Source: Candidatus Enterousia sp.
GTDB lineage: Bacteria; Pseudomonadota; Alphaproteobacteria; Rs-D84
Assembly: GCA_045592905.1 (NCBI GenBank)
Contig: JAZNVR010000030.1
Location: forward strand, 6,029 to 70,028
Reading direction: 5' to 3'
DNA: 64,000 nt
The stretch's first letter is position 1; each line of letters begins with the position of its first letter. Of the stretch, positions 40,602 through 55,823 are shown piece by piece. Under the pieces are notes generated by a model that saw nothing but the letters and a program-made list of their open reading frames with translations, was not told where the DNA came from and did not search any database. The position numbers were made by a program, and so were the translations under genes.

Positions 40602-40658
40602 ACAAACTTGTTACATTTCATAAAATGTGATAAAATGATAAAACAAGAGAAGATAACA

Positions 40659-41369
40659 ATGACAAAAATAATTTTATCATCTTTGTTGGCATTTGCTTGC
40701 GTAAACACAGCAATTGCAAATATTGCATGGTGGGACCAGATTACAATTTGCCGTATAGATACGACAAAATGTTATACCACAATGGGTGCCGGATTTGACC
40801 CAGATATATGGGATACAGATGCAGGTTGTCGTGGCATGAAATATATTTGCCCAGAAGCATTGATAAAAAATACAATTCATCCAGAATTAATTGGCAAAAA
40901 ACAATTAACAGATAAAAAAATAATAAAATCCGATTACAATACAGATTTACTATCAGAAACAGGTGATTGTTTTGGCCGTCGCACATCAAATGATACAGGT
41001 TCCCAGGTTTTGGTTAATGGCAAATATGTAAACGTGTATTGTCATGGCGTATTAAGCAAGTCAGACGAAATTCTTGATAATGGTGAAATTGTATATGACA
41101 CGCAACCAACATGCGAAACATTAAAACAGAATGAATACATTGCTGCAGACAATGGAAAGTGTTATGGCAAATATCTTGATTCATCAAAATATCATATTGA
41201 ATGCAGTGATGATTTAAATGATTTGTTACCAGAACGTATCATTGTCTTGAACGGTGCGGACTTAATCCCCGCAACCAACAATCCCATCAGCAGCAAGGAT
41301 GCAGATAAATTATTCAAAAAAATGCAATCTGTATCTAAAAAACAAAAAGAGCAATATTTCAAAAAATAA
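40659..41369 (+). CDS. Secreted Cys-containing protein (236 aa)
   Basis: The ATG at 40659 gives the signal peptide MTKIILSSLLAFACVNTAIA. The mature part contains multiple Cys. It is co-directional with 38271-40601 and a terminator follows. Confidence 0.55.
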   Translation: MTKIILSSLLAFACVNTAIANIAWWDQITICRIDTTKCYTTMGAGFDPDIWDTDAGCRGMKYICPEALIKNTIHPELIGKKQLTDKKIIKSDYNTDLLSETGDCFGRRTSNDTGSQVLVNGKYVNVYCHGVLSKSDEILDNGEIVYDTQPTCETLKQNEYIAADNGKCYGKYLDSSKYHIECSDDLNDLLPERIIVLNGADLIPATNNPISSKDADKLFKKMQSVSKKQKEQYFKK

Positions 41370-41898: not shown

Positions 41899-44800
41899 TT
41901 ATATTCCCAATGAATGTGTCAACTTTATCATAAACACAGATTCATCACCAAAATAATCTGTATTATTTGGATTTTGACGATAAATAAATCCGATTGCACC
42001 ATTTGTAAATTCACCAAAATTATGACGATATGTTGCACCAAAACGTATTTCACGCTGTTCAGATGCCAATGATAAATCTGCAACATGTGCATCTATAACA
42101 TTCAGATTATATATACCGTTACCATTATCTGTAACATCATACTTTGCATACGAATAACGTAATACACCATCTGTTATCGCCAATGGCTGTGAAATACTGA
42201 AATCAAAGTTCCCCACCGTCAAACCAATACCAAATGCATTTGATTTTATTTCAGATAACCCCAGCACAAAATCACCAGACGCATCAGATACAGTATTGGC
42301 AAATGTTGCACGCATTGTTAATTCTATAAATTCAGAAAAATCATATTTTGCTTCTATATCTGTGTATATTGTTTGCCCTGCCCCAAAATTCAACAATCCA
42401 TCAGAATATGCACCTAATAATGTATTTGATTCTTGGACAACACCCACAGATGTATTTAAATCCAAACCATTTTTATTCCAAGAAATACCTGTTTCTAAAC
42501 CATGTGCCAACCCTAATTTTGCAGGCATATATTGTGCCGCAATCGTTGGGTCATTTTCCAACAATCCTTCGTCCGTAATTGCCCCAGATATTGCACGACC
42601 AGAAAAACCCCAGTTACCAATTTGATATTTAACATCTGTTGTTACGGCATTTGAAATCAATCCCATAATTGGATTGTGTAATCCAGAAAATCTAGAACTG
42701 CCATCTGTTAAATAACGTTGATACGTTGCACCAAAATTCCAATTTCCAGAATCATATGATAAACTTAAATTATCTAACCCACCCATATAATCAATGTATT
42801 CACGTGATGAAATCGCCATCGCAAAGTCTAAATTACCAATTTTTACAGATTGTTTATCATTACGTACAGTCTTTAAATCCCCCAATATATCACCCATATA
42901 TAACGCACTGGCATCTGATGCACCCAACGCAAATTCATTTTCCCAAACACGTGGCAAAGACATCTGACCATCAACACTGTGCAGAACATCAAAGAACGGT
43001 GCACTGATTGACGCACCACGCAAATTTAACGTTGCAGATGGCTTGAACACAGTATCAGATGCTGCACGCCAATAAGAATTACCATCCGCAGATACAATCT
43101 TGTTTTTATTACCATTATAATAGTATATAGAATGTCCAGGTGTCATTGCACGTTCCAAATTAATCAATCCATAACCATACACCTGTGCAAACGCATCCAA
43201 ATATTTATCAACACTTAACGTGTTTGCAAAATATTCTGGTGGCAATGCATATTTCTGCTTTAAATATGTAACCAATGTATCCTTGGTAAACGCATTCCCC
43301 GCAGCATCAGTTGCCAGCAAATAACCATCAGACGTCAACGCCAATAACTGAAATATTTCATTATTAGTCATGTATCCAAACGCCCCCTTGACAGCAGCCA
43401 CAGCACCTGCGGCTGATGCGGTTGCCATTTCTGCTGTTGGACCAGCAGCAGCAAAACACCATGGATCAACATTTCCGCCACCAACACCAGAAATACCACA
43501 TTGACGAGATGAATACGTAACCCCATCTTTTTTATACAAAGACAGATACAGCGGTCCATACTTTGTACCAAATCCATCACCATAACCAACAATCGTAGAT
43601 GCTTCTGTCGTACCTTTTGAACCGCTATGTTGTACTGCAACGACTGTCATAAAATTATGATTCAGATTATCATATCCATCAACCAACGGTGCGTAATTTT
43701 CAAACGTTGCATCTAAAACACTGGTGGACATGCCGTCCCCTGTACCAAACTTGAAATCGCCTGCTGGCATAACCAACATTGGCACCCCAGATGCCGCACT
43801 GGCTGGTCCATATCCACCAAACAACGCACTGGCATATGCCCCCTGGGCCAAGGACAGACCTGTATCAGTATTATTCGTATAATATTCATTAATCAAATTA
43901 ACATACGCAGAACTGTCTTTCAAATTATTAAGTCCTGCATATCCCAGCACGCCAGAAATTTGCGTATAGTTTGCATTTTTTGACGCTTCCAGCACAGATA
44001 CATTTGCAATAACATCACTGCCGGTTGATTGATACGCATATCTAAGTGCCTCAAAATTTCTGAACGCTGCATCCTGCAATGTTTTTGCGTTATACAAATT
44101 ACCATTATTTAGCACATAAACCGCATCAATCGTATTTCCACCACTGGTATTAACATACAACAAACCATCTGTATCTTGATAAATCGCAATATCTGAATCG
44201 GTACATCCATCATCAGCACACTGACCAACCAACATTTGACTATTTGCATCCAGTTTATATGTTGTATCACCAACCGTTACAACAGGTTCTGTTTCAGATG
44301 TTTCATCCAGTGCTAATTTAAGATTATATGTTACACCATTCAAGACAATTACATCCCCAGAACCAATAACATCATTATTATTTGCATCTGACAATGTACC
44401 GACGACAGTACCACTGGTCGGGTTATCTATGTTTACCCACTGTTGACCATTACCTGTTCTAAAAATTCCCAATCGTCCATCTGGTACAAATCCATAAAAA
44501 TCACCATATGGACGTGCGTCTGTTTCACTTTCTGCACCTTCCCAACCTGCGACAAATTTTCCCAATGCACTGTCGTAAACAGACGCAAATGGATTCATTG
44601 CTGTACCGCTGCCAGATAAATCAAAAAAAGTTTTTTCTTCACCCAATGCATTAGTTGCCTGATTCGGATTATCGTAATTCAGATATTTATCAACCAAATA
44701 AGTCTGTGCATCCGCAGCAGCCGACGTAGCATATAAAATTCCATTACCACGTGCAGCCGACCCAGTTGGATTTAATCCATTCGCAGTAACCAGCGACACA

Positions 44801-45639
44801 GACACAGGTTCGCCACCATCAGCACCATTTGCAGACCACAAAGGATTCTTGGTTGTTGCATCACGAAAAATCCCCATACCGGTATACCCATTTGCAAATG
44901 AAGAATAACCATGCATCATTAACAGATAATTTTGCACCTGAAAATTTGTAATTCCATCTACAATATAGTTGTTTTCTGGCTGTGCACTTGGATTAAAATA
45001 ATTGAAATCTAGTTTATGCATCGGATTAGATAACCAGCCTTCTAAATTCTTCTGATATAAATCACTATTAGCATCAACCTTGCCATCCGTCTTGTTTACA
45101 TACACAGGACTGTATGGCACTGTTGTCAACAGACTGCCAGGTCCACTGGTTCCACCATCATTTGGATTATTATCTGGACGACTGCCCCCACCTTGAACAG
45201 CATTATTTTCATTACCTGGGTCAAAAACATCCGTTAACAAAAACAGACCACCTACAACAACAGCGGCACCTGCCGCTGCTAATGTAATATTTTGTGCAGA
45301 CGACAGCCCGCTGAACAATCCGCCAGTTGGCTTGGGCTTTGTCCTGTTATTATAAATCTTGATTTGATTATCGCATTTTGATGCATCTGCACCATACATT
45401 TGCAAAATTTGTGCGGCCCGCACATCATTATTCATCAATGCAGTACAAACAATTGACAGTCCTGTTGCATCAACAAAGTTAATATCAGCACCTGCATTAA
45501 CCAGACTTTGCACCTGTTGTACATCCGCATTCTTGGCCGCAGCCAACAACTGTGCAGCCATTGTAAATTCAGGCGTTGCCCCAAATGACGCAATCGGTGC
45601 AAAAAACAACGAAAACAACAAAATTCTGATAAATTTCAT
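41899..45639 (-). CDS. Large exported protein (1246 aa): signal peptide, ankyrin repeats, hydrophobic Gly/Ala segment, long passenger-like region, and a C-terminal beta-barrel-like (autotransporter-like) domain
   Basis: Signal peptide MKFIRILLFSLFFAPIASFGA. ANK-like sequence LLAAAKNADVQQVQSLVNAGADINFVDATGLSIVCTALMNNDVRAAQILQMYGADA. Hydrophobic segment ITLAAAGAAVVVGGLFLL. The last ~330 aa show an alternating beta-strand pattern but end ...LTHSLGI, with no terminal aromatic residue. Confidence 0.65.
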   Translation of the reverse strand: MKFIRILLFSLFFAPIASFGATPEFTMAAQLLAAAKNADVQQVQSLVNAGADINFVDATGLSIVCTALMNNDVRAAQILQMYGADASKCDNQIKIYNNRTKPKPTGGLFSGLSSAQNITLAAAGAAVVVGGLFLLTDVFDPGNENNAVQGGGSRPDNNPNDGGTSGPGSLLTTVPYSPVYVNKTDGKVDANSDLYQKNLEGWLSNPMHKLDFNYFNPSAQPENNYIVDGITNFQVQNYLLMMHGYSSFANGYTGMGIFRDATTKNPLWSANGADGGEPVSVSLVTANGLNPTGSAARGNGILYATSAAADAQTYLVDKYLNYDNPNQATNALGEEKTFFDLSGSGTAMNPFASVYDSALGKFVAGWEGAESETDARPYGDFYGFVPDGRLGIFRTGNGQQWVNIDNPTSGTVVGTLSDANNNDVIGSGDVIVLNGVTYNLKLALDETSETEPVVTVGDTTYKLDANSQMLVGQCADDGCTDSDIAIYQDTDGLLYVNTSGGNTIDAVYVLNNGNLYNAKTLQDAAFRNFEALRYAYQSTGSDVIANVSVLEASKNANYTQISGVLGYAGLNNLKDSSAYVNLINEYYTNNTDTGLSLAQGAYASALFGGYGPASAASGVPMLVMPAGDFKFGTGDGMSTSVLDATFENYAPLVDGYDNLNHNFMTVVAVQHSGSKGTTEASTIVGYGDGFGTKYGPLYLSLYKKDGVTYSSRQCGISGVGGGNVDPWCFAAAGPTAEMATASAAGAVAAVKGAFGYMTNNEIFQLLALTSDGYLLATDAAGNAFTKDTLVTYLKQKYALPPEYFANTLSVDKYLDAFAQVYGYGLINLERAMTPGHSIYYYNGNKNKIVSADGNSYWRAASDTVFKPSATLNLRGASISAPFFDVLHSVDGQMSLPRVWENEFALGASDASALYMGDILGDLKTVRNDKQSVKIGNLDFAMAISSREYIDYMGGLDNLSLSYDSGNWNFGATYQRYLTDGSSRFSGLHNPIMGLISNAVTTDVKYQIGNWGFSGRAISGAITDEGLLENDPTIAAQYMPAKLGLAHGLETGISWNKNGLDLNTSVGVVQESNTLLGAYSDGLLNFGAGQTIYTDIEAKYDFSEFIELTMRATFANTVSDASGDFVLGLSEIKSNAFGIGLTVGNFDFSISQPLAITDGVLRYSYAKYDVTDNGNGIYNLNVIDAHVADLSLASEQREIRFGATYRHNFGEFTNGAIGFIYRQNPNNTDYFGDESVFMIKLTHSLGI

Positions 45640-45763
45640 ACCTACACTCTTCTAATACAAATAATATCTTATCATAACTAAGATTTATCTGTCTAGATAA
45701 AAAACAAAAAAAATTGGCCTATCAAAATTTGACAGACCAATAACAATATTATTAACCACAGAA

Positions 45764-46336
45764 TTATCTGCAACGGCCATTACCATATGTACAAACATAG
45801 ATACCAGATACCGTAAAACGTTTTGCTGTATCACAAGGTTGTGGTTGTGGCTGTGGTTGTGGCTGTGGATTTTGCACAACATAAACCGTATCATGTACAA
45901 CCTTTGGCTGTGGTTTTGGCTGTGGTTTTGGTTGTGGTTTTGGTTGTGGTTTAACAACTTCTATAACCAAAGTATCCTTGCGTGAATTATTTTCCACAAC
46001 AACATCATTGTTATTTTCAACAACAACTGTATTACCAACTGCAACTTTGCTGTTATTTTTTACACGTGCATTGCCACCAGCAGACACACTGTTTTTATTA
46101 GATACACTGACATCATTGCCAACTGCAACTCTGCTGTTATTTTTTACACGAACATCATTACCAACAACGATATTGTTATTATTTACAACTTCAATTTTTG
46201 GTACCTTTTTTTCGCATGGTTTTTTATTGTCTGATTTACCAGAACACTGTGTAACACCAAACAATGTTGTCAAAACAATCAAAGATCCCGCAGTAAAACA
46301 TAATGCGATATCTCTTACTTTATTATTAGAAGCCAT
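45764..46336 (-). CDS. Membrane-anchored repeat protein (190 aa): 14-aa beta-solenoid-like repeats plus (PQPK)n and (PQ)n tracts
   Basis: N-terminal anchor IALCFTAGSLIVLTTLFGV. Repeats VGNDVRVKNNSRVA / VGNDVSVSNKNSVS / AGGNARVKNNSKVA / VGNTVVVENNNDVV. Tracts PQPKPQPKPQPKPQPK and PQPQPQPQPQPQP. RBS AAAAGGGG. Confidence 0.6.
   Translation of the reverse strand: MASNNKVRDIALCFTAGSLIVLTTLFGVTQCSGKSDNKKPCEKKVPKIEVVNNNNIVVGNDVRVKNNSRVAVGNDVSVSNKNSVSAGGNARVKNNSKVAVGNTVVVENNNDVVVENNSRKDTLVIEVVKPQPKPQPKPQPKPQPKVVHDTVYVVQNPQPQPQPQPQPCDTAKRFTVSGIYVCTYGNGRCR
45836..45951 (-). repeat. Short tandem coding repeats (6-bp PQ and 12-bp PQPK units)
   Basis: The + strand shows ggttgtggttgtggctgtggttgtggctgtgg at 45836-45869 and ggctgtggttttggctgtggttttggttgtggttttggttgtggttt at 45905-45951. 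Confidence 0.85.
45976..46168 (-). repeat. Periodic coding repeat (14-aa units; 32-bp near-identical block repeated at an 84-bp offset)
   Basis: The block ccaactgcaact(t/c)tgctgttattttttacacg occurs at ~46034 and ~46118. Confidence 0.75.
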
Positions 46337-46434
46337 TTATATCCCCTTTTTTATCTGTTTATTTAACTACTTACGCAAATAATATAGACAAATAATATCA
46401 TTTTGTCAAGTGATATATAAAAATATTTTTTTCT

Positions 46435-46464
46435 TTGCTATGTTTACGCCATTTGTGTTATAAT
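46435..46464 (+). promoter_or_regulatory. Sigma70 promoter with extended -10 (TTGCTA-18-TGtTATAAT) for the four-gene Cys-rich operon
   Basis: TTGCTA at 46435-40, TG at 46456-57 and TATAAT at 46459-64. It shares the string tgtgttataat with the promoter at 25128-38. Confidence 0.5.
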
Positions 46465-46483
46465 GCACCAATAAAGAGAGAAT

Positions 46484-47344
46484 ATGAAAAACACGATTTT
46501 AATTTTATCGGCATTATTTATGATAACGCCTGCTGCTGATGCAGCGTCTAAGTGTTCACGTGCGAATTTAACCCGTTGTTTAGATTCTGCATGTGCAATA
46601 AACATATCATCAAATCCATCTGCCCGATGTCAATACTGTGGTTCGGCCAGTGCTGGCATACCGAATGAAAAGAATGCAATGCGTGCAGTTGCGGCTGGTG
46701 CGTCTGCAAAATATAACATTTCTGACAAGGATTTAAAAAAAGCACCAACAGATCCTGGCGAACGATACATGTGGGCAACTGCGAAATGCATTGGCAAGGT
46801 TGCTGGATGTACTGCTGATGATGTAACAGATGTGTATGACCCATTAATTGAACAATCATGCAAGGCTGCGGGCATATCTGCAAAAATGGAAAGATTACAG
46901 GCAGATGCCAGAAAAACAAAAACCCAAACGGAATGCGAATCGGAAATAACATCATGCTTATTGGATTCTAAGTATTGCAATCCAGACTATCGCAATTGTG
47001 AAGCAAATGAAAATTTTGATAAATTTTTTGCTGCATGCGGTGTTGAATCAACGGGGTGCGATGAATTTGTATCTGGAATTCGTGAAAAATTGTTAAGTGC
47101 ACGTGATTCTGCGATTAAGAACGCAGATGAGGCGTTGGCTAAGATAGTTGCCACGTACCAAAACACACGTGAAAAGAAGTTGGCTGATATCAAAAGCGGT
47201 TGTACAGACGACAAAGAATTTACCAACTGCGTTGAAACCGTATGCGACAGAAACATGCCAAACAAATGTGCAGAAAATTCAGAAAAGGTTTCTGCAGGTT
47301 TACTATGCCAGTTTTATAAAACTGCATGCAAAACACTAAGATAA
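46484..47344 (+). CDS. Secreted Cys-rich helical protein (286 aa), first gene of a four-gene operon
   Basis: Signal peptide MKNTILILSALFMITPAADA. I count 20 Cys by hand. Motifs KCSRANLTRCLDSAC, SCLLDSKYCNPDYRNC and NCVETVCDRNMPNKC. Confidence 0.65.
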   Translation: MKNTILILSALFMITPAADAASKCSRANLTRCLDSACAINISSNPSARCQYCGSASAGIPNEKNAMRAVAAGASAKYNISDKDLKKAPTDPGERYMWATAKCIGKVAGCTADDVTDVYDPLIEQSCKAAGISAKMERLQADARKTKTQTECESEITSCLLDSKYCNPDYRNCEANENFDKFFAACGVESTGCDEFVSGIREKLLSARDSAIKNADEALAKIVATYQNTREKKLADIKSGCTDDKEFTNCVETVCDRNMPNKCAENSEKVSAGLLCQFYKTACKTLR

Positions 47345-47354
47345 TGGAACAAAT

Positions 47355-48893
47355 ATGATTAAAGGCAACATGACTTTCGGTATAAAATATTTAACATCTG
47401 CATTTGGTTGTCTGGTTATATTGCTGTGCACAACAACGTCTGCGACATCTGCAATGGTTCAGGTTGAAAACAAATCTGCACAATTTGAAGTTGCAATAGA
47501 TGATGTCCAAGAAACAATTGGTTCCAACAGTGAAAGCGAACTGGCTGAAAAAATTCGCAAACAACGTGCTGCATTTAATGCCCAATCTGCCCTGACATCA
47601 TCCAAGGCAGCTGCGGCTGTTGTTAATACAGGCAATAATGAATGCGACAAAAAATTACGTTCATGTATGCAGTCAAAATGTGGCAAAGATTTTTCTAAAT
47701 GTGCGGGTGATACAGATACACTATGGGGTGATAAACTGGACTTATGTCGTATGGATATAAAGTGTACAGGCGAAGAATATCGCTTGTTTACCGCAGAAAT
47801 CAAGGCCGATCGTGATCAAAATGCGATGCTGTTGCACTATAATTCTATTATTGATTGTGGAAATCAATACAACGATTGCATAATAAAAGAATGTGGAAAA
47901 ACATTTACAAATTGCTTGGGCAAATCTGCGGGTGATGCAGCAATCCAAAAATGTTCAACAATTGCACGAAATTGTACAGAACAAGACAGTGGCATGTCAT
48001 CACGTGCAATGGAAACATTTGCAAACCTGCGTCAAGATGCGGAAAAAGCAATTGTACGTGACGAAAAACGTTTACATGAATTACGTGACACAATGCGTTC
48101 TGCATGCAATCGTCTGGGTGCGATGTTTGATGAACGAACACTGGACTGCGTATATTCTATTGAATTTCGTGCAGGTGGCGACAATACATTATACGCATCT
48201 AAAAAGGCATATGCCGGTTCAACATTTAACTGTGATCAAAACTGGTTTGGTGTTGATGTAACAACATTTATGGAAAATGCATTTCGTTTAACACGTGCCC
48301 AAACATCTGCATCATCTGCGGCATTGGGTTCTGGTGTTGGTATGGCGGCGGGTGCGATAACATCTGGTGCGATTGATCGTGCGGTTGATCGTGCCAAGGC
48401 CGAACGTGCACTGGGTTCAGAATTATGCGATTATACTGGTGGTAAATGGAACAAGGCATTTAATTCATGCAACTGTCCAAAGGGTGCAAAATTTGACAAG
48501 GAACAAGGATGCGTTGCCAAAGACGACGATTTTGGTGTAACAATGGGTAAAATACAGTCTAACGATAATGACGATTCTGATGACGAAGAAGAATTTGATA
48601 CAGATAACCTGTTATCTGAATTAAGTAATTTATCAGAAGACGAGTTAGCCAAATATAAAAACGACCCATACATACAAAAAATTGCCACAGAAAACGGCAT
48701 AGATTTAGAAAACCTGTCTCCTGATGATATATCAACATTACTAAGCAACGAAGAATTGGATTTAAGCGAAATAGATATGGAAGGACTACCTAAAATAGCC
48801 CAACGATATCTAAAAAATCGTGCAAAACGCGCAGCAAAGGGTAAATCTAATTTTATAGATAGAATAGTAGATAAAAAACTAGGTGGCGAATAA
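47355..48893 (+). CDS. Secreted Cys-rich protein (512 aa) with CGKxF units, a glycine-zipper, one C..G.W[ND]..CxC..C unit and an acidic Leu/Ser-rich tail
   Basis: Motifs CMQSKCGKDFSKC, CIIKECGKTFTNC, SAALGSGVGMAAGAITSGAI, LCDYTGGKWNKAFNSCNCPKGAKFDKEQGCV and the tail DDSDDEEEFDTDNLLSELSNLSEDEL.... There is a 10-nt gap to the upstream gene. Confidence 0.65.
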   Translation: MIKGNMTFGIKYLTSAFGCLVILLCTTTSATSAMVQVENKSAQFEVAIDDVQETIGSNSESELAEKIRKQRAAFNAQSALTSSKAAAAVVNTGNNECDKKLRSCMQSKCGKDFSKCAGDTDTLWGDKLDLCRMDIKCTGEEYRLFTAEIKADRDQNAMLLHYNSIIDCGNQYNDCIIKECGKTFTNCLGKSAGDAAIQKCSTIARNCTEQDSGMSSRAMETFANLRQDAEKAIVRDEKRLHELRDTMRSACNRLGAMFDERTLDCVYSIEFRAGGDNTLYASKKAYAGSTFNCDQNWFGVDVTTFMENAFRLTRAQTSASSAALGSGVGMAAGAITSGAIDRAVDRAKAERALGSELCDYTGGKWNKAFNSCNCPKGAKFDKEQGCVAKDDDFGVTMGKIQSNDNDDSDDEEEFDTDNLLSELSNLSEDELAKYKNDPYIQKIATENGIDLENLSPDDISTLLSNEELDLSEIDMEGLPKIAQRYLKNRAKRAAKGKSNFIDRIVDKKLGGE

Positions 48894-48906
48894 GCAGGCA
48901 TCAATC

Positions 48907-51642
48907 ATGAAAAAATTTTTATTATATTTTTTAACAATCACAGCAACCACCCTGCCCACATTTGGTGCCACTGATTCTAGGAACAACGAATTTTTATTTT
49001 CTGTCAAGGCAAAACTTACAGGCTATACTGACATGGCTCCTGGGGCAAAACCTCAGGCAAAAATAACTTCACCATCCGATTGTAAATTTCTTACTTACAG
49101 CAAAAACATAAAAGATAACTCAAACCCTCAAATTTCTACCACTATAACAGACACGTTTGACACATCTGTTACATGTCCGACAGGCACAAGCAGCATTACA
49201 CTAGAGTTTATATCAAACAAAACACCTGTTGGTTCACCTAAATACAATATCCAAAATCCGACACATACAATAGAATTAAAACCAAACAAAAAGAATTATA
49301 AATTACCAGATATCGTATTGGAACAAACGAACAAACCAACATCCACTTCAGATGACAAAAAAACAACATCAGTAATTGCACGAGGCACAACAAATAACAC
49401 ATCTGCAGACAACAGCCCCAGTTTTGCATCACAAAGTGCTGCAATAAATGCAAGCAACGATACCAGTTTACGTGCAAATTCAACACCTGAACAGACACCC
49501 GCAAAATCAGAACGTCAACAGGCCGTTGAACAAAATATGAAAAAATCATTAACGGTTCAGAATACGCAAAAGGCACCAAACGTAAAGTTAGATGATCCAA
49601 AACTGTCTGAATCAAATCCATTGGCAGAAACCACAAAAAAACAAAACGAAAAAGCAGCGGCTGATTTAGAAAATAATTTTGACTTTGCATCTGCCAGTGC
49701 AGGCACAAACAATGAAACCATTGCTCGCAGTGGCTTGGGTGCAACACCAACGGAACAGACACCTGAAAAATCAGAACGCCAACAGGCCATTGAACAAAAT
49801 ATGAAAAAATCGCTGACTGTAACACAAAAATCATCTGTACAAAAGACAGGAATCAGTCAATCACCAGCAGAAAAAGAACGTCTGGTAAGAACAGCACTTA
49901 CAAAATTCTGTGATGATGCTGGATTCGTGTATAAAAAGAATGGTACAGAAACTGCATCTTTGGGCGAAATTGATGCTACATGCAACGAAAATTCTGCAAG
50001 TCAAATTTATTTCTACTGCTATAAATACAAAAATTTAACAATACCAGAAAATGAAATCCGAACACATCTTGCATATTATTGTTTTACAAATAAAACAACT
50101 CCTGTAAATCCAAAACAAAAGCAACGTCCATCTGACCATTATGACAAGAAAAAAGCAGATCGTGCAGCCAAACAAGAAGAAAATAAAGTCGGCAAACGTT
50201 GCGAAATTGAAAACGCAACATCTGCAAAATACGTCAAAAAACCGTCTGGAAAAATTGTTTGTGAACCAGATGACTGTATTTGCGGATATGAAATTGTTGA
50301 AAAGAATTTCCAATATTCATGCCAAAAATGGCGTCAAAATAACCCAAGTTGCTATATGCACGAAAGTATGCCTGACAACGCAACCAAGGCACACTATGAA
50401 TGCAACAAAAACAACAAAAAAATATGCGTTGTTGACGAATGCAATTACAAGACACATTATCTGAACAAAGAAAAAAATAAATGTATCGCAAAAAGTACTG
50501 TAAAATGTGCCAATGATGAAATTGTTAATAACGTTGGTCAATGCCAGAAAAACCCAACCGATTTGGCAAAACCAAACGACCCCAGCAAGCAAGAAATGTC
50601 ACAGGCAGACATAGAACGGGACAATTGTGTCAGAAATCAACAGAAAAACCATACAAAGTATGAAAACAATAAATGCGTTTGCGAAAGTGCAGATTACGAA
50701 ATGCAAGACGATGGTGTTTGTACATTAAAACGTGCAAAATGTCTTGAAAAAGATCATACCAAATATGTCAAGGGTCGCTGTGTCTGCGAAAGCGACAAAT
50801 ATGAAATGCACTCCGATAACAATTGTTATATGACACGTGCTGCACTGGATGCCGAAGCATCAGAAATGGAAGATGCCGACAATGCAGCAAAAGACGAACA
50901 GTTGTTCTTGGAAACACGCCAAAAAGCATGTGCAACAGATAATCTGGGCGAATGGGATGAGAAAACAGGCAAGTGTAAATGTAAAACAGGATATAAACTG
51001 GGTGATGATTATGCATGTCATGCAACAAACAAAACTGTGACACAAGAAACATTACAGGCACTGTGTTCTAATACAAATGGCGATTGGGACAAAAACAAGT
51101 GTAAATGTAAAAACGAAACACATACTTTTGATAAAGAAAAAGGATGTATACCGGATGACAAAAAGGTTAAACGTGCAGAAAAGCAACAAGAAAAAGAAAT
51201 TGCATCATTAAATGCAGACAGGGACAATGCTGAAAGAAAGGCTTTTTGTGATAATACTGGCGGTGACTGGAACGAAAAAACAAATAAATGCAAGTGCAAG
51301 AAAGGTTTTGAACTGGTTGATGACGGTTGCGAAGAAACAGAAAAATCACAAACAAACACCAAGAAAAAAGAACTGTGCGAAAAAAATGGCAACTGGAACG
51401 ACGCATTAAATACATGCAATTGTAAAGGAAAAGATTTCTTTGATGATGACGAAGGATGTGTTTCAGAATCATCAGAATTCTTGTCTTTACAAAACACATT
51501 TAATACGATGAAGGAACAATTAACACAAAGAATTACCGAAATTGATGCAGAACTGGCCGCAGCAGAGGAATCAGATGCTGAATCAGACGCTGAATCAGAT
51601 GCTGAATCAGATGCAGAAACCGAAACAGAACAACAGTCATAA
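48907..51642 (+). CDS. Secreted mosaic protein (911 aa): Thr/Ser/Asn-rich region, an 88-aa internal duplication, many Cys units including four C..G.W[ND]..CxC..C units, and an acidic (ESDA)n tail
   Basis: The ATG at 48907 gives the signal peptide MKKFLLYFLTITATTLPTFGA. Motifs: KSERQQA(V/I)EQNMKKSLTV x2, HTKY..xxCVCES..YEM x2, ACATDNLGEWDEKTGKCKCKTGYKLGDDYAC, LCSNTNGDWDKNKCKC..., FCDNTGGDWNEKTNKCKC... and LCEKNGNWNDALNTCNC.... Confidence 0.65.
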   Translation: MKKFLLYFLTITATTLPTFGATDSRNNEFLFSVKAKLTGYTDMAPGAKPQAKITSPSDCKFLTYSKNIKDNSNPQISTTITDTFDTSVTCPTGTSSITLEFISNKTPVGSPKYNIQNPTHTIELKPNKKNYKLPDIVLEQTNKPTSTSDDKKTTSVIARGTTNNTSADNSPSFASQSAAINASNDTSLRANSTPEQTPAKSERQQAVEQNMKKSLTVQNTQKAPNVKLDDPKLSESNPLAETTKKQNEKAAADLENNFDFASASAGTNNETIARSGLGATPTEQTPEKSERQQAIEQNMKKSLTVTQKSSVQKTGISQSPAEKERLVRTALTKFCDDAGFVYKKNGTETASLGEIDATCNENSASQIYFYCYKYKNLTIPENEIRTHLAYYCFTNKTTPVNPKQKQRPSDHYDKKKADRAAKQEENKVGKRCEIENATSAKYVKKPSGKIVCEPDDCICGYEIVEKNFQYSCQKWRQNNPSCYMHESMPDNATKAHYECNKNNKKICVVDECNYKTHYLNKEKNKCIAKSTVKCANDEIVNNVGQCQKNPTDLAKPNDPSKQEMSQADIERDNCVRNQQKNHTKYENNKCVCESADYEMQDDGVCTLKRAKCLEKDHTKYVKGRCVCESDKYEMHSDNNCYMTRAALDAEASEMEDADNAAKDEQLFLETRQKACATDNLGEWDEKTGKCKCKTGYKLGDDYACHATNKTVTQETLQALCSNTNGDWDKNKCKCKNETHTFDKEKGCIPDDKKVKRAEKQQEKEIASLNADRDNAERKAFCDNTGGDWNEKTNKCKCKKGFELVDDGCEETEKSQTNTKKKELCEKNGNWNDALNTCNCKGKDFFDDDEGCVSESSEFLSLQNTFNTMKEQLTQRITEIDAELAAAEESDAESDAESDAESDAETETEQQS
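49489..49830 (+). repeat. In-frame duplication at a 264-bp (88-aa) offset
   Basis: The block gaacagacac...tcagaacg(t/c)caacaggcc(g/a)ttgaacaaaatatgaaaaaatc starts at 49489 and again at 49753. Confidence 0.8.
51568..51615 (+). repeat. 12-bp tandem repeat x4 (gaatcaga(t/c)gc(t/a)) encoding ESDAESDAESDAESDA
   Basis: Read directly from the sequence. Units start at 51568, 51580, 51592 and 51604. Confidence 0.9.
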
Positions 51643-51648
51643 AAAACA

Positions 51649-53790
51649 ATGAAAAAATTATTTTTATCATCTTTGCTAGTTATATTATCAATACCTGCCA
51701 TCGCAGCAGATGCCCCAGGATTGGCGGCACGACCTGTGCCCACACTAACTGTTGGGCCATCTGCCATGGATACACCAGTAAATCTAAATCTGAAACCAGG
51801 CAGTCCTTTTGCATCTGCAAAAACACCAGATGAAGCATGGCAAATATTTGAATCAGAAACACAAAAAATACTGGATAAAGTAAAAAATAAACTGAGACAT
51901 TCTGAATATAAAAAGTTATCCGCATTACGTGACGAAATGCTGGCCGAAAAGCTAAGTGCAACTGAACTGAATAAAAAAACAACGACAGAAAAGACAAAGA
52001 AAGAAAAAACAAAGAAAGAAAAGAAAGATAAAGACAGCAAAAACGATACCGAAGAAGACGCAAGCAAGGTTGTTACACAACGTAAATTATCCAAAGAAGA
52101 ACAAGAAAAGAAAATTTCTGAATTACGTGACAACGCAACCGCAATGAAAGAAAAAGAACAATCGTTGGCAAACAGAACATTGGGTGCTGCTGCGATTGGT
52201 GCGACTGGGATTGGCGGAATGCAGTTGGCATCTGCAATGTCTGAACAACAGGCAGACGCTGATGCGGAACAAGCCATGCGTGCATATCTGGCAACATTTA
52301 CATGTAATTATGCCGACGGCAAATATTTCAAGGGTGGCGAAAAAGACATTGAATTACCAGGCAGTGCAGAATTGATAAACCTGTACAGCGAATATGTTAC
52401 ATTGGCAAATGATTTGAAAACCCGCAAAACAGCATTGGGAATAAAACCAGGTATTGAATCAGAAAGTATTCTGGACGGTGCCACATCTGGTCTGTATGAC
52501 GATGTTGGTATGGGCAAAACAACTGGTGCATATGCATCATTGGCACGTGCATTACAAAATCCAGATGGCGAAGATGCCAAAATGTGGGCTGCACAAAAAG
52601 AAGAAACGGCAAAAAAACTAAAAACAGGTGCAATTACGGCTGGTGTCGGTGCAGTGGGTGGTCTGATTGGAAATATTGCCATTAACGCCAGGGCCCCAAA
52701 AGAACGCTCGGCTGAAATAAATGCAAAATACGAAAAACTGAAAAAAGAAATTGTAATAATACAAAAAAAGATTAATCGTCTGCCAAAACCAAAATGCGAA
52801 GATTTTAATGCAACAGGTGTATGGGATGACTGTAAATGTAACGAAGCAAATCATATTTTCTCAAACAGTCGTTGCGTAGATTGTGGTCAAGGATACAAAG
52901 CCATCGGGAACGAATGTGTTCTAAAAGAATGTGAATTAACCGGTGATGTTGTTACAGGTCTATATGATTGCGAATGTCACCCAGATGCAGAACAGCAAGG
53001 AAATGACTGTGTATGCAAACTGACTGGTATGAAAAAAGAAAATTATTGTGAATGCGTTGATAACGCAACTAAAAATGCACAAGACGTATGTGAATGCAAT
53101 GACGGTTACGAAGAATCAGATGGAAAATGCGTTCCAAGGGCACAATGTCAATTAAGCGATACATTGGCAGATATAGAACAATGTCAATGCGTGGAAAATG
53201 CAAATGATGATGATAATGACAGTCTTTGCGAATGCAATGACGGCTATGAAGAATCAGATGGAAAATGCGTTGAAATCGTTGCCGAAAATCCAAAACCAAT
53301 CGTAATCAATGTGCCTGCGGATACATTCTTTAACAGTGGGGATTATACAATATCCGATGAAAACAAACAACAATTGATTGCTGATATTATGGATACAATC
53401 AAAGCACAGGCACCAAATGAAGATGCAGCAACACTGTTATCGTCATCATGCATAACAATAACCGGATACGCAGACAGATCTGGGGCACACTTAAAAAACG
53501 AAAGATCAAACCAAAGATTGTCCGAAAGACGTGCACAAACGGTCGCAGACATCTTGAAACAAAAAGCCAAGGATGAATTACAAGACGGTGTTAATCTGCG
53601 TGTATCGGGTCGTGGCCATACAGATTGTACCGAGGCACAATATCCAACACCAACAGATTATGCAAAGTGCCGTCGTGTGGATATTTCTATAAATTCTGGA
53701 ACATGTAATGGGTCAACCCCAGATTCAGGGCAAACATTACAAAATGTAATAGATGGTGTTGCGTCTGTAATAAACAGACCACAACAATAA
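51649..53790 (+). CDS. Secreted/anchored protein (713 aa) with a Lys-rich coiled coil, two glycine-zipper segments, EGF-like Cys units and a C-terminal OmpA-like peptidoglycan-binding domain
   Basis: Signal peptide MKKLFLSSLLVILSIPAIAA. Glycine-zippers TLGAAAIGATGIGGMQLASAM and GAITAGVGAVGGLIGNIAI. Cys units CEDFNATGVWDDCKCNEANHIFSNSRC and CECNDGYEESDGKCV x2 (138-bp offset). OmpA_C-like ITGYADRSG...NQRLSERRAQTVADIL...CRRVDISI. Confidence 0.75.
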   Translation: MKKLFLSSLLVILSIPAIAADAPGLAARPVPTLTVGPSAMDTPVNLNLKPGSPFASAKTPDEAWQIFESETQKILDKVKNKLRHSEYKKLSALRDEMLAEKLSATELNKKTTTEKTKKEKTKKEKKDKDSKNDTEEDASKVVTQRKLSKEEQEKKISELRDNATAMKEKEQSLANRTLGAAAIGATGIGGMQLASAMSEQQADADAEQAMRAYLATFTCNYADGKYFKGGEKDIELPGSAELINLYSEYVTLANDLKTRKTALGIKPGIESESILDGATSGLYDDVGMGKTTGAYASLARALQNPDGEDAKMWAAQKEETAKKLKTGAITAGVGAVGGLIGNIAINARAPKERSAEINAKYEKLKKEIVIIQKKINRLPKPKCEDFNATGVWDDCKCNEANHIFSNSRCVDCGQGYKAIGNECVLKECELTGDVVTGLYDCECHPDAEQQGNDCVCKLTGMKKENYCECVDNATKNAQDVCECNDGYEESDGKCVPRAQCQLSDTLADIEQCQCVENANDDDNDSLCECNDGYEESDGKCVEIVAENPKPIVINVPADTFFNSGDYTISDENKQQLIADIMDTIKAQAPNEDAATLLSSSCITITGYADRSGAHLKNERSNQRLSERRAQTVADILKQKAKDELQDGVNLRVSGRGHTDCTEAQYPTPTDYAKCRRVDISINSGTCNGSTPDSGQTLQNVIDGVASVINRPQQ

Positions 53791-53794
53791 AAAT

Positions 53795-53821
53795 AGTCCG
53801 CCAAATGGCGGATTTATTTTT
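53795..53821 (+). terminator. Intrinsic terminator ending the four-gene operon
   Basis: Stem tccgcc-aaat-ggcgga followed by tttatttt. Confidence 0.65.
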
Positions 53822-53842
53822 GCCCTGCTCTTTTTTTAGGAC

Positions 53843-53876
53843 AAAAAAAAATCCCCTTGATTGGGGACTTTTTTAT
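53843..53876 (-). terminator. Intrinsic terminator for the FKBP gene (tcccc/gggga type)
   Basis: The sequence aaaaaaaaa-tcccc-ttgatt-gggga-cttttttatttt. Confidence 0.65.
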
Positions 53877-54202
53877 TTTTCCAAGATATCAACTATCTTT
53901 ACCTTAAACACTACTGGTTTACCAGCCAAACCTTCTACGTATTGTTCTGGGAATGTGATATTAATATCACGTTCTTCGCCTTCTGCCATACCAACCAACT
54001 GTTCTTCAAACCCAGGTACAAATGCACCACTGCCCAATTCCAATGGATAATTTTCTGCAGTACCACCAGGAAACTGAACACCATCTAAGAAACCAGCAAA
54101 ATTAATAACAACCGTATCACCATTTTTTGCAGTTGTTGTTCCATCACATCCAGCCAATCCAACCATTGCTAACACCCCCATAATTGATACTACTTTTTTC
54201 AT
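53873..54202 (-). CDS. FKBP-type peptidyl-prolyl isomerase lipoprotein, resembling the trigger-factor PPIase domain
   Basis: The ATG at 54202 (RBS AAGGGGA) gives [19 protein letters not shown] (lipobox). [50 protein letters not shown]... is collinear with the trigger factor/FKBP PPIase core. Confidence 0.7.
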
Positions 54203-54221
54203 ATTTTTCCCCTTGGTTAAT

Positions 54222-54782
54222 TTAATTATTGTAAACACATCTAAAGCCATATTCACGCATTGTTGCACCTTCGGCTTCTATTTTATAATCAAAATACGGT
54301 GTTGGACGCATAACATCAAACGCAGGTTTGTCATATACCATAACAATACTATCTGCATTACGGCCACAAACACGTTTCATTTCAAAATCTGCAACATTTG
54401 CCAACACTGAACGAATATCACCATCAATATCCATACCATCTGCGTTTTGCATTAAACGTAATCTCATTTCTCTCATATCTGTATTACCCAGCAAGATTTC
54501 AACACGAACCATTGTACCCTTGTACTCTTGCCAGCGAGTTTCCTTTCTGGCTGTATTCCAACGGTTGCTGGTCTGTTCTTTTTCTGCGGCTGTTTTCGGC
54601 TTAAACGAATCAATATTAGAATACTGATTATCAGCCTGCATAAAACCACTGGTACGTTCGTTATACAGCGGTGCATCTGGTCCACCCTGTTCAAAATCAG
54701 TTTCATTGTACGGCATACTGCCAGATGTACACCCAGACAACGCAATTGCACCCAAGAATAAAAACAATAATGATTTTTTCAT
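54222..54782 (-). CDS. Lipoprotein (186 aa), function unknown, divergent from virB11
   Basis: [18 protein letters not shown] (lipobox). RBS AAGAGAGA. Confidence 0.55.
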
Positions 54783-54863
54783 AATATTTCTCTCTTACTT
54801 TTTTTTAATTTTATCAAATAAACAGTTTTGATTCAAGTCAGGATTTATGATAAAATTAAATTG

Positions 54864-55823
54864 ATGTCAAATGTTGTATTAGAATCTTTATTAAAACCAT
54901 TAGAAGAATTCTACAAACCATCGTTCGTAGAAGAAATCGCAATTAACCATGCTGGCGAAGTATGGATGCGATTGCATGGTGCACGTGTTCCATGGGTGTC
55001 ATACCAGTCAGATGTGTTAACAAAACAATATCTGATTGATTTAATACATACTGTTGCAAATATTTATGAACGGCCATTTGATCCAATACATGGAATGCCT
55101 GTTGTTTATGCAACACTGCCTGGCAACCATCGTTTTACTGCAATTGCAGGCCCAAATGTTCAATATGATGAACATGATGTAACCGGTGGTGTGGCATTAA
55201 ATATTCGTGGTGGCGGTGCACACGAAACCAGTTTTGAAAATTATCACTTAAGTCGTGGAAAAAAACTATTAACAGTAAAATCACGACAAACTGTTCGGCC
55301 AGATGACCCATATGACCGACTGATGTCCGCAATAAATGACGGCAGCCCAATATTAATCAGTGGTGCAACATCAACAGGAAAAACAACTTTTCTGAATCAT
55401 ATGTTAACATTAATTGATAAAAACAGTCGTGTTATTACTGTTGAAGATGCACGTGAAATTCGTGTTCCCCAGGCGAATCGGGTACACTTTGTTTTATCAC
55501 GTACAGAACAAACAAATGACTTTAATTATGCCCGACTGCTGGATTTAGTTGTGCGTATGACCCCAGATGTAATTATTGGTGGTGAAATTTCAACTGACAA
55601 CGCATCTGTACTATGGGAAATGTTGGGTACAGGACACGATCATTTCTATACAACAATTCATGCAGAAAGTGCAGAAGCCGCATATGCAGCATTCGCAGAC
55701 AGAATTTTACATACACAGCCGGCATATGACCGCACAGATTTAATTGCTGAAATGAAAAAGAAAATTCGTGTTGTACAATTATCACGTGATGGTTCACTGC
55801 GTGCCGTTACCGAAGTCGTATAA
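54864..55823 (+). CDS. virB11: VirB11/TrbB-family type IV secretion ATPase (orphan in this window)
   Basis: LLKPLEEFYKPSFVEEIAINHAGEVWM... matches the VirB11 N-terminus. Walker A GATSTGKTT, Asp box ITVEDAREI, Walker B DVIIGGEI and His box TTIHAES are present. ATG at 54864. Confidence 0.8.
   Translation: MSNVVLESLLKPLEEFYKPSFVEEIAINHAGEVWMRLHGARVPWVSYQSDVLTKQYLIDLIHTVANIYERPFDPIHGMPVVYATLPGNHRFTAIAGPNVQYDEHDVTGGVALNIRGGGAHETSFENYHLSRGKKLLTVKSRQTVRPDDPYDRLMSAINDGSPILISGATSTGKTTFLNHMLTLIDKNSRVITVEDAREIRVPQANRVHFVLSRTEQTNDFNYARLLDLVVRMTPDVIIGGEISTDNASVLWEMLGTGHDHFYTTIHAESAEAAYAAFADRILHTQPAYDRTDLIAEMKKKIRVVQLSRDGSLRAVTEVV

Follow-up and report, generated by a model that had tools for sequence, protein, structure and literature searches.

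Two kinds of described envelope system come closest to the locus reported here. The first is the family of proteins with an OmpA-like domain (PF00691), among them OmpA, Pal, YiaD, MotB and TssL, in which the aspartate of a G-x-[TA]-D motif and the arginine of an LSxxRA motif are the positions tied to the binding of peptidoglycan diaminopimelate. The second is the chlamydial omcA-omcB operon with MOMP, where cysteine-rich envelope proteins occur alongside an outer-membrane beta-barrel in a host-dependent bacterium with a reduced genome. The present locus lies in 64,000 nucleotides (nt) of Candidatus Enterousia sp. of the order Rs-D84 (contig JAZNVR010000030.1, positions 6,029 to 70,028), and this whole stretch is called the window below. 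It consists of an operon for four exported cysteine-rich proteins, named P1 to P4, and of two genes diverging from it that encode a 190-residue anchored protein and a 1246-residue predicted barrel protein. The cluster may be likened to an OmpA/Pal-type tether together with a chlamydia-like cysteine-rich complex, and its homology to either is confined to the OmpA-like domain of P4. That this module, specific to Ca. Enterousia and Rs-D84, builds a proteinaceous cell-envelope or surface structure is, in our estimate, about an even chance.

The likeness to the chlamydial cysteine-rich outer-membrane complex would be one of functional analogy only. P1 to P4 have no sequence relationship to OmcA or OmcB, and a Pfam-A scan of the four proteins at E≤0.1 gave only OmpA and traces of cEGF and HEPN_RES_NTD1, the last being a sub-threshold trace on P1. 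The Rs-D84 module also differs from the chlamydial complex by including a predicted wall-binding domain, in a lineage that is reported to keep its peptidoglycan genes (PMC12306168), MreB, RodA and MrdA being retained for rod shape and peptidoglycan (PMC12306168). Genomes of Rs-D84 are mostly smaller than 1 Mb and are without biosynthetic pathways and respiratory chains, and the lifestyle is probably that of a partner-dependent obligate symbiont or parasite (PMC12306168).

The four forward-strand open reading frames (ORFs) encode P1 (286 residues, 46484..47344), P2 (512 residues, 47355..48893), P3 (911 residues, 48907..51642) and P4 (713 residues, 51649..53790), and their coordinates bear out the gaps of 10, 13 and 6 nt given in an earlier model-made account of the same letters, hereafter the sequence-only reading. 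P3 is taken from its ATG; the mechanical ORF opens at a GTG at 48883, which would create an overlap of 11 nt with P2. The proteins had been described as secreted and cysteine-rich, and this holds for all four. Signal peptides and signal peptidase I sites were read from the sequence together with a Kyte-Doolittle hydropathy scan, and plausible cleavage sites fall between ADA and A in P1, TSA and M in P2, TFG and A in P3 and AIA and A in P4. The cysteine counts are 20, 21, 42 and 27 respectively (7.0, 4.1, 4.6 and 3.8%), whereas most housekeeping ORFs of the window have 0-2%. The only known domain in any of the four is the Pfam OmpA domain of P4, in agreement with the earlier statement that an anchoring domain is recognisable in the last protein only.

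A sigma-70-type promoter with an extended −10 element, TTGCTA-18-TGtTATAAT, is predicted ahead of P1 at 46435..46464 (+), where the sequence-only reading had placed it, and scored 10/12 matches in a consensus scan. The scan returned 23 sites in the window against 32 expected from shuffled sequence, and is hence not significant alone. Among relatives, most loci have the pattern CTTTGCa-N17-TGaTAtAaT-N12-AGAGAGAAtATG ahead of P1, with the −35 element, the extended −10 element and the ribosome-binding site keeping their positions; in the promoter comparison of 82 loci the −10 element reads TAnAAT in 67 and TGnTAnAAT in 56, and the displayed loci matching neither pattern mostly have TATAGT or TAGAAT at an unchanged position. 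At the other end, an intrinsic-terminator-like, bidirectional hairpin of 8 bp (5 GC) with a T-run is found at 53795..53814 (+), 4 nt past the P4 stop, followed by TATTTTTG; this is the terminator previously assigned to 53795-53821. A GC-rich hairpin with a T-run occurs 0-33 nt past the P4 stop in 29 of the 47 loci compared, and a second hairpin follows in the window at 53852-53867. Both sites are credible despite the chance-level scan because they are conserved across relatives. Inside the operon the search for forward-strand terminators gave no strong candidate, the one stem seen being of 5 bp at 48512. Of 35 loci inspected for their spacing, the large majority have neighbouring genes separated by a few to about 30 nt, and gaps of a few nucleotides suggest translational coupling. 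One strand, short gaps, a promoter-like start, a terminator-like end and a kept gene order are all present at the sequence level, and P1 to P4 are likely to form one transcription unit, as the sequence-only reading had supposed.

Gene order in relatives was compared in 80 species genomes of Ca. Enterousia or the order Rs-D84, with 83 loci, these genomes being the best of 261 stretches with P1 relatives found when one genome per GTDB species was scanned. All of the best 80 are gut metagenome-assembled genomes, the sources including cattle, sheep, goat, deer, yak, buffalo and chicken, and they are labelled Candidatus Enterousia or Alphaproteobacteria bacterium. P1 and P2 adjoin in 82 of the 83 loci and the gene of the barrel protein accompanies them in 77, while a P4-like gene was detected in 59, a figure lowered by contig ends that cut many of the remaining loci. 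The closest species, with a P1 that is 87% identical, has all four genes in the same order, coding for proteins of 293, 509, 979 and 719 residues, and the global identity of P1 to P4 to these is 79-85%, similar to that of neighbouring genes. Kept order is thereby confirmed for the relatives, and the "stoichiometric" four-gene unit of the sequence-only reading has to be given up: P3, scored by tblastn over the 83 loci, was detected in just 7, all in close relatives, and most genomes have three genes. The conserved core consists of P1, the first ~350 residues of P2 and the ~220-residue central domain of P4.

P1 homologs numbered 692 with identities of 55-100%, and when the P1 profile was run with HMMER over all of 1.84 billion cluster representatives, 66 clusters only were returned, with no distant tail. 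A mobile element or a recent horizontal acquisition of the cluster is unlikely since its GC content (0.37-0.40) agrees with that of the remaining window sequence and the whole clade has the locus. A phage or defence origin was rejected, the only PHROG match being to an OmpA-type family.

P1 is an orphan protein in which all 20 cysteines are invariant in an alignment of 24 sequences; in an alignment of 104 sequences 19 are invariant and C275 is nearly so. Its AlphaFold2 model is all helices at a predicted local distance difference test (pLDDT) of 78 and did not match known folds (best E 2.7), and a sequence search of the PDB with P1 found nothing. P2 consists of a conserved cysteine-rich core (residues ~37-353), which ends in a Gly-zipper-like segment (322-340), then a 4-Cys repeat (358-386) and a variable acidic tail. 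Its first ~350 residues are 55-69% identical between species, and the listed homologs range from 408 to 840 residues with the variation in the C-terminal part, where two of them have CarboxypepD_reg-like domains. The P2 profile found no relatives in the PDB, Pfam or NCBIfam, and P1, P2 and P3 had nothing above threshold in Pfam, NCBIfam or PHROGs. A spacing C-x6-8-C-x4-C-x6-7-C with invariant cysteines recurs in both P1 and P2, and overall the two are weakly similar, at BLASTP E 0.026 and at hhalign E 0.003 with a probability of 10%. Paralogy of P1, P2 and a neighbouring cysteine-rich family is possible on a short common cysteine motif, with hhalign probabilities of 10-39%.

These relations bear on the proposal that the cluster proteins are co-regulated, non-assembling members of a large exported cysteine-rich pool for metal or redox buffering or for nutrient binding, and are neighbours by chance. 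In its favour, at least five more exported cysteine-rich orphans are found at 29.5-41.4 kb of the window, one with 57 cysteines and three paralogous to each other. That P1, P2 and this paralog family have just the short motif in common is likewise compatible with the proposal, as is our own consideration that the cysteines could be metal ligands in a quinone-less anaerobe. However, chance neighbours would not be expected to keep the P1-P2-P4 order and the barrel linkage in at least 77 loci, even where the locus is rearranged and in the genomes that diverge most (37-38% identity), nor to persist together where the genes flanking the cluster differ. The gaps of a few nucleotides that suggest translational coupling, and the 19 or 20 invariant cysteines at 55-87% P1 identity, which point to a precise fold and partner surface, also argue against it, and this proposal is considered very unlikely.

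The lineage-specific P3 has an N-terminal half rich in S, T, N and K with an internal duplication, then cysteine-rich repeats at residues ~432-851 in 4-Cys units of the form C-x11-14-C-x-C-x10-12-C, and finally an acidic tail of SDAE repeats. The units often have G-x-W before and G-[FY] after the CxC. In the closest species P3 is ~85% identical, with a repeat copy-number indel. In most genomes, which have three genes, a longer P4-like protein carries cysteine-repeat arrays N-terminal to its central domain, and P4-like proteins range from 310 to 1588 residues and from 1 to 113 cysteines. Because most genomes hold the arrays inside the longer P4, the P3 of the window looks like a separately encoded or expanded form of a variable module borne by P4 elsewhere. 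P3, the tail of P2 and the middle of P4 are lineage-variable arrays of short cysteine repeats.

In their tandem arrangement the repeats of P3 and P4 resemble EGF arrays, and the EGF signature C-x-C-x2-G-[FYW]-x4-8-C is exact in four units of the two proteins. The units have 4 cysteines, or form a CxC-x10 ladder, rather than the 6 of EGF; the cEGF profile scored 15.2 bits against a Pfam cut-off of 26.6, and P3 and its repeats had no Pfam or PDB match above threshold. EGF domains are therefore not demonstrable in P3 and P4, for lack of the six-Cys pattern and of a profile match. Several repeats are also visible in the DNA: a 12-nt repeat GAATCAGATGCT encoding SDAE at 51568-51618, a K/E-rich 15-nt coding repeat at 51974-52022, and 6/12-nt repeats encoding PQPK at 45837-45952. 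The window has a strong A-over-T skew on the coding strand from 48000 to 54000 (AT skew 0.23-0.33). Given this skew and the tandem repeats, a long ORF on the opposite strand at 51018-52277(−) most likely arises from composition and is not a gene.

At its N-terminus P4 is charged and rich in K and E; it then has a conserved central domain (residues ~146-365; nt 52084-52743) with Gly-zipper-like helices at both flanks, CxC/EGF-signature repeats that include the CxC-x10 ladder (residues 383-540; nt 52795-53268), and the OmpA-like domain (residues ~545-690; nt 53281-53718). Pfam OmpA matched residues 560-659 at E=2e-8, its 34.9 bits exceeding the cut-off of 27.2, and a PHROG OmpA-type family matched residues 543-684. 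The peptidoglycan-contact motif reads ITGYADRSG...NQRLSERRAQTV for a family consensus of TGHTDRTG...NQKLSENRANAV, and P4 agrees with the pattern G-x-[TA]-D ... N-x2-LS-x2-RA-x2-V, both contact positions being present. The C-terminus of P4 is thus a canonical OmpA-like, predicted peptidoglycan-binding domain. Like YiaD, P4 combines Gly-zipper-like helices with an OmpA-like end. It differs from the OmpA family in having no lipobox, its signal-peptide cleavage site being without a cysteine, no N-terminal 8-strand barrel and no match outside the OmpA part; the domain is instead preceded by cysteine-repeat arrays and an orphan central domain, and is lost in some lineages. The central domain is 53-68% identical between species, and its profile found no relative in the PDB or Pfam.

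Tethering of an assembly through the last subunit, as proposed in the sequence-only reading, is only partly upheld. The canonical motif in P4 speaks for it, and the domain is present in 40 of the 49 complete P4-like proteins; it is missing from the other 9, so wall tethering by the last subunit is not an indispensable principle. In two close relatives with a short P4 (L010 and L011) the next genes code for HAD and SSB and not for a split-off OmpA domain, and the anchor is therefore truly lost there. Two divergent genomes in which the P4-like protein is without the OmpA domain have, 1.4-1.6 kb past the operon, a weak MotA/ExbB-like gene and a gene for a 360-residue protein with an OmpA domain (L066, 18217-20473; L080, 15740-17984). 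The two genes may be a separate pair of stator or Tol-like kind, or may stand in for the missing anchor.

Such stator-like genes, together with the best NCBIfam matches of the P4 C-terminus, which are to the OmpA extensions of TssL and DotU and to MotB, would fit another placement of P4, namely as a two-helix inner-membrane protein of the MotB/TssL/DotU kind with a cytoplasmic centre and a wall-binding C-terminus, the operon then being the periplasmic part of a machine. The distribution of cysteines agrees with that topology, in that many lie to either side of the central domain while the domain itself (~198-326) has a single invariant one, as expected if it were cytoplasmic. The NCBIfam matches (TssL, DotU, YiaD, MotB and Pal) are however confined to residues ~540-690, covering the OmpA part only, and fall far below their cut-offs, with 52.5 bits against 139.8 for TssL-OmpA, 38.7 against 175 for YiaD, 15.3 against 125 for Pal and at most 28 against at least 250 for MotB. 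The first Gly-rich helix stays below the Kyte-Doolittle threshold of 1.2, too little for a membrane span, and only the segment 327-345 reaches 1.62, the charges around helix 1 run contrary to the positive-inside rule for that topology, and the central-domain profile did not match the structures of DotU, TssL or MotB. An inner-membrane P4 of this kind is accordingly very unlikely.

The sequence-only reading overlooked the two divergent genes, which are linked to P1 as tightly as the genes of the operon are to each other. The nearer one (45764..46336, −) encodes the 190-residue protein. In it a predicted transmembrane anchor at the N-terminus precedes the sequence QCSG, after which come N/V-rich repeats, PQPK repeats and a C-terminus that is basic and beta-like. 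Of 77 loci examined for a gene of this kind, roughly 70 have one (150-310 residues) at a distance of ~115-165 nt from P1, and a few gave the N-terminus of the barrel gene at that position instead. Its own promoter-like site, TTGACA-17-TATATT with 11/12 matches (46409-46381, −), stands back to back with that of P1, the two being ~25 nt apart within 46381-46464, a pairing that suggests joint control of the cluster's two arms. Between the 190-residue and 1246-residue genes are a terminator-like hairpin of 13 bp with T8 (45713..45741, −) and a weak promoter-like site (45695-45666, −).

The 1246-residue protein (41899..45639, −) has a signal peptide, ankyrin repeats at residues ~27-92 (nt 45364-45561) seen in both Pfam and PDB matches, and an Ala/Gly-rich hydrophobic segment at residues 118-136 (nt 45232-45288). 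An AlphaFold2 model of residues 130-1246 (pLDDT 78, predicted template-modelling score 0.64) has a mixed alpha/beta globular region of ~700 residues before a C-terminal beta-barrel of ~16-18 strands (residues ~876-1242; nt 41902-43014). With this model Foldseek gave 51 PDB matches below 1e-3, nearly all outer-membrane barrels, the best being 16-strand porins with template-modelling (TM) scores of 0.46-0.48. The model may also resemble fusolisin (PDB 8axg, Fusobacterium), a subtilase autotransporter, in having an N-terminal globular region and a C-terminal barrel (E 5.9e-5, TM score 0.27).

A classical subtilase autotransporter was in fact the first interpretation of this protein, and it was rejected as a family assignment by profile tests. 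The barrel has ~16-18 strands and not 12, Pfam Peptidase_S8 gave no match to the protein at E≤10, the PF03797 beta-domain gave none to its C-terminal 376 residues even at E≤10, and the ankyrin repeats and the hydrophobic segment are extra. An hhalign comparison with an approximate sequence of subtilisin BPN' aligned 12 residues only, and just the end motif YGYGLINLERA aligns to subtilisin. At the position of the catalytic-serine motif, aligned by eye, the protein has PTAEMA and not GTSMA. A true autotransporter in the window (59084-61930, −), with an orphan passenger, was recognised by PF03797 at E 9e-32 and served as positive control. Judged from its model, the 1246-residue protein is probably an outer-membrane barrel protein whose large N-terminal domain is probably not catalytic. 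At the sequence level it matched no Pfam, NCBIfam or PDB entry outside the ankyrin repeats. P1, the core of P2, the central domain of P4 and the barrel protein each represent an undescribed family, and all of them are restricted to one order.

The homolog of the barrel gene is beside the operon in 77 of the 83 loci even when its place has changed. Four of these loci have a moved gene (L064, L075, L077 and L078), lying 54-178 nt past P4 on the same strand, and it is exactly these four that are without the post-P4 terminator. This survival of the linkage through rearrangement is the strongest evidence for a functional unit. Gly-zipper-like segments recur in P2, P4 and the barrel protein, which suggests a common membrane or oligomer interface for the three.

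On the envelope reading, the exported cysteine-rich proteins would fold with disulfide (or metal) staples and assemble with the barrel protein in the periplasm and outer membrane, and the OmpA-like domain of P4 would pin the assembly to peptidoglycan in most species. The result would be a cysteine-stapled envelope scaffold that joins the outer membrane to the wall, in which the repeat arrays would act as spacers or be displayed. That genomes below 1 Mb, in a lineage probably dependent on a partner, keep ~12 kb of conserved, orphan, exported proteins argues for an important role in structure or as an interface. Several points weigh against this scaffold. Wall anchoring is dispensable in those lineages whose P4-like protein is without the OmpA domain; P4-like proteins of up to 1588 residues and 113 cysteines seem, by our own estimate, too long for a purely periplasmic spacer; the reported lack of respiratory chains would leave, on our own reasoning, no obvious quinone-dependent route to disulfides; and the segment 118-136 of the barrel protein, with a Kyte-Doolittle value of 2.18, is awkward in a protein that has to pass the inner membrane on its way to the outer one.

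The length of the arrays is better explained if the cluster makes a surface adhesin or attachment fibre, for which the barrel would be a type V or two-partner-like translocator or a platform, the cysteine arrays of P3, the P2 tail and the long P4 forms would be displayed on the cell surface and bind host or partner cells, and the OmpA-like domain would do no more than fix the base. Arrays that exceed the periplasm, again by our own estimate, and that vary as greatly in length and copy number between species as the P4-like proteins do (310-1588 residues, 1-113 cysteines), with P3 as a lineage-specific addition, would be natural in such a fibre. So would the CarboxypepD_reg-like beta-sandwich modules in the variable tail of some P2 homologs, the genetic coupling of a porin-sized barrel to the operon, and a bacterium that is probably an obligate symbiont or parasite in need of partner contact (PMC12306168). 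The barrel, however, best matches general porins and not FhaC/TpsB or Omp85-type proteins, and Pfam gave neither a POTRA nor an Autotransporter domain for it. Between the two closest species P3 is moreover as conserved (~85%) as P1, P2 and P4, so that fast diversification is not seen at short range, and no adhesin family was found among the window proteins in Pfam, NCBIfam or PHROGs. An attachment fibre, the main rival reading, is regarded as possible, if rather doubtful. A bolder version would be an envelope or attachment apparatus of new folds (those of P1, P2 and the central domain of P4) on a porin-sized barrel, with periplasmic ankyrin repeats and a dead subtilase-like domain, that holds a partner cell and may take metabolites from it; this is considered unlikely, and if true it would imply that an anaerobe without respiration has a new means to stabilise exported cysteines by the dozen.

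With its ~12 kb the cluster takes up roughly 1.3% of such a genome and codes almost wholly for exported proteins that have no known relatives. In the guts of animals and humans Rs-D84 bacteria are widespread, and their surface is uncharacterised (PMC12306168). Should the cluster make the main envelope or attachment structure, its proteins would offer targets for antibodies, for imaging coupled to fluorescence in situ hybridisation and for enrichment of this uncultured lineage, as well as new folds and a test case for the export of cysteine-rich proteins in a quinone-less anaerobe. Were they mere co-regulated orphans, the cluster would still be a useful lineage marker.

Exported cysteine-rich orphans occupy ~24 kb of the window. 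Beyond the cluster they comprise a protein of 759 residues with 57 cysteines (29507-31786, −), three proteins that are mutual paralogs by blastp at 1e-10 to 1e-46 (32975-35560, −; 35582-37771, −; 38271-40601, +), and one with 10 cysteines (40635-41369, +). The three paralogs open with C-x6-C-M-D-x2-C, the short cysteine motif common to P1 and P2, and Gly-zipper-like segments as in P2 and P4 are also present in the proteins of 29507-31786 and 35582-37771. None of the five orphans at 29507-41369 matched Pfam or NCBIfam.

Downstream of the operon, a stand-alone VirB11-like ATPase is encoded at 54828-55823(+), matched by TIGR02788 at 1e-43, below its cut-off, and no further type IV secretion genes adjoin it. 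At 90-93% identity in relatives, it is the most conserved gene nearby. A type IV secretion link through this ATPase was rejected, since it adjoins the cluster in 6 of the 83 loci, in close relatives only, and is therefore taken as ordinary local synteny. Convergent with the operon, two small lipoprotein-like genes at 53873-54782(−), 67-88% identical in close relatives, code for a peptidyl-prolyl isomerase of the FKBP/trigger-factor type (131 residues, lipobox-like LAGC) and a 186-residue orphan (LSGC). The position of a putative periplasmic folding helper next to a cysteine-rich exported cluster may or may not be a coincidence.

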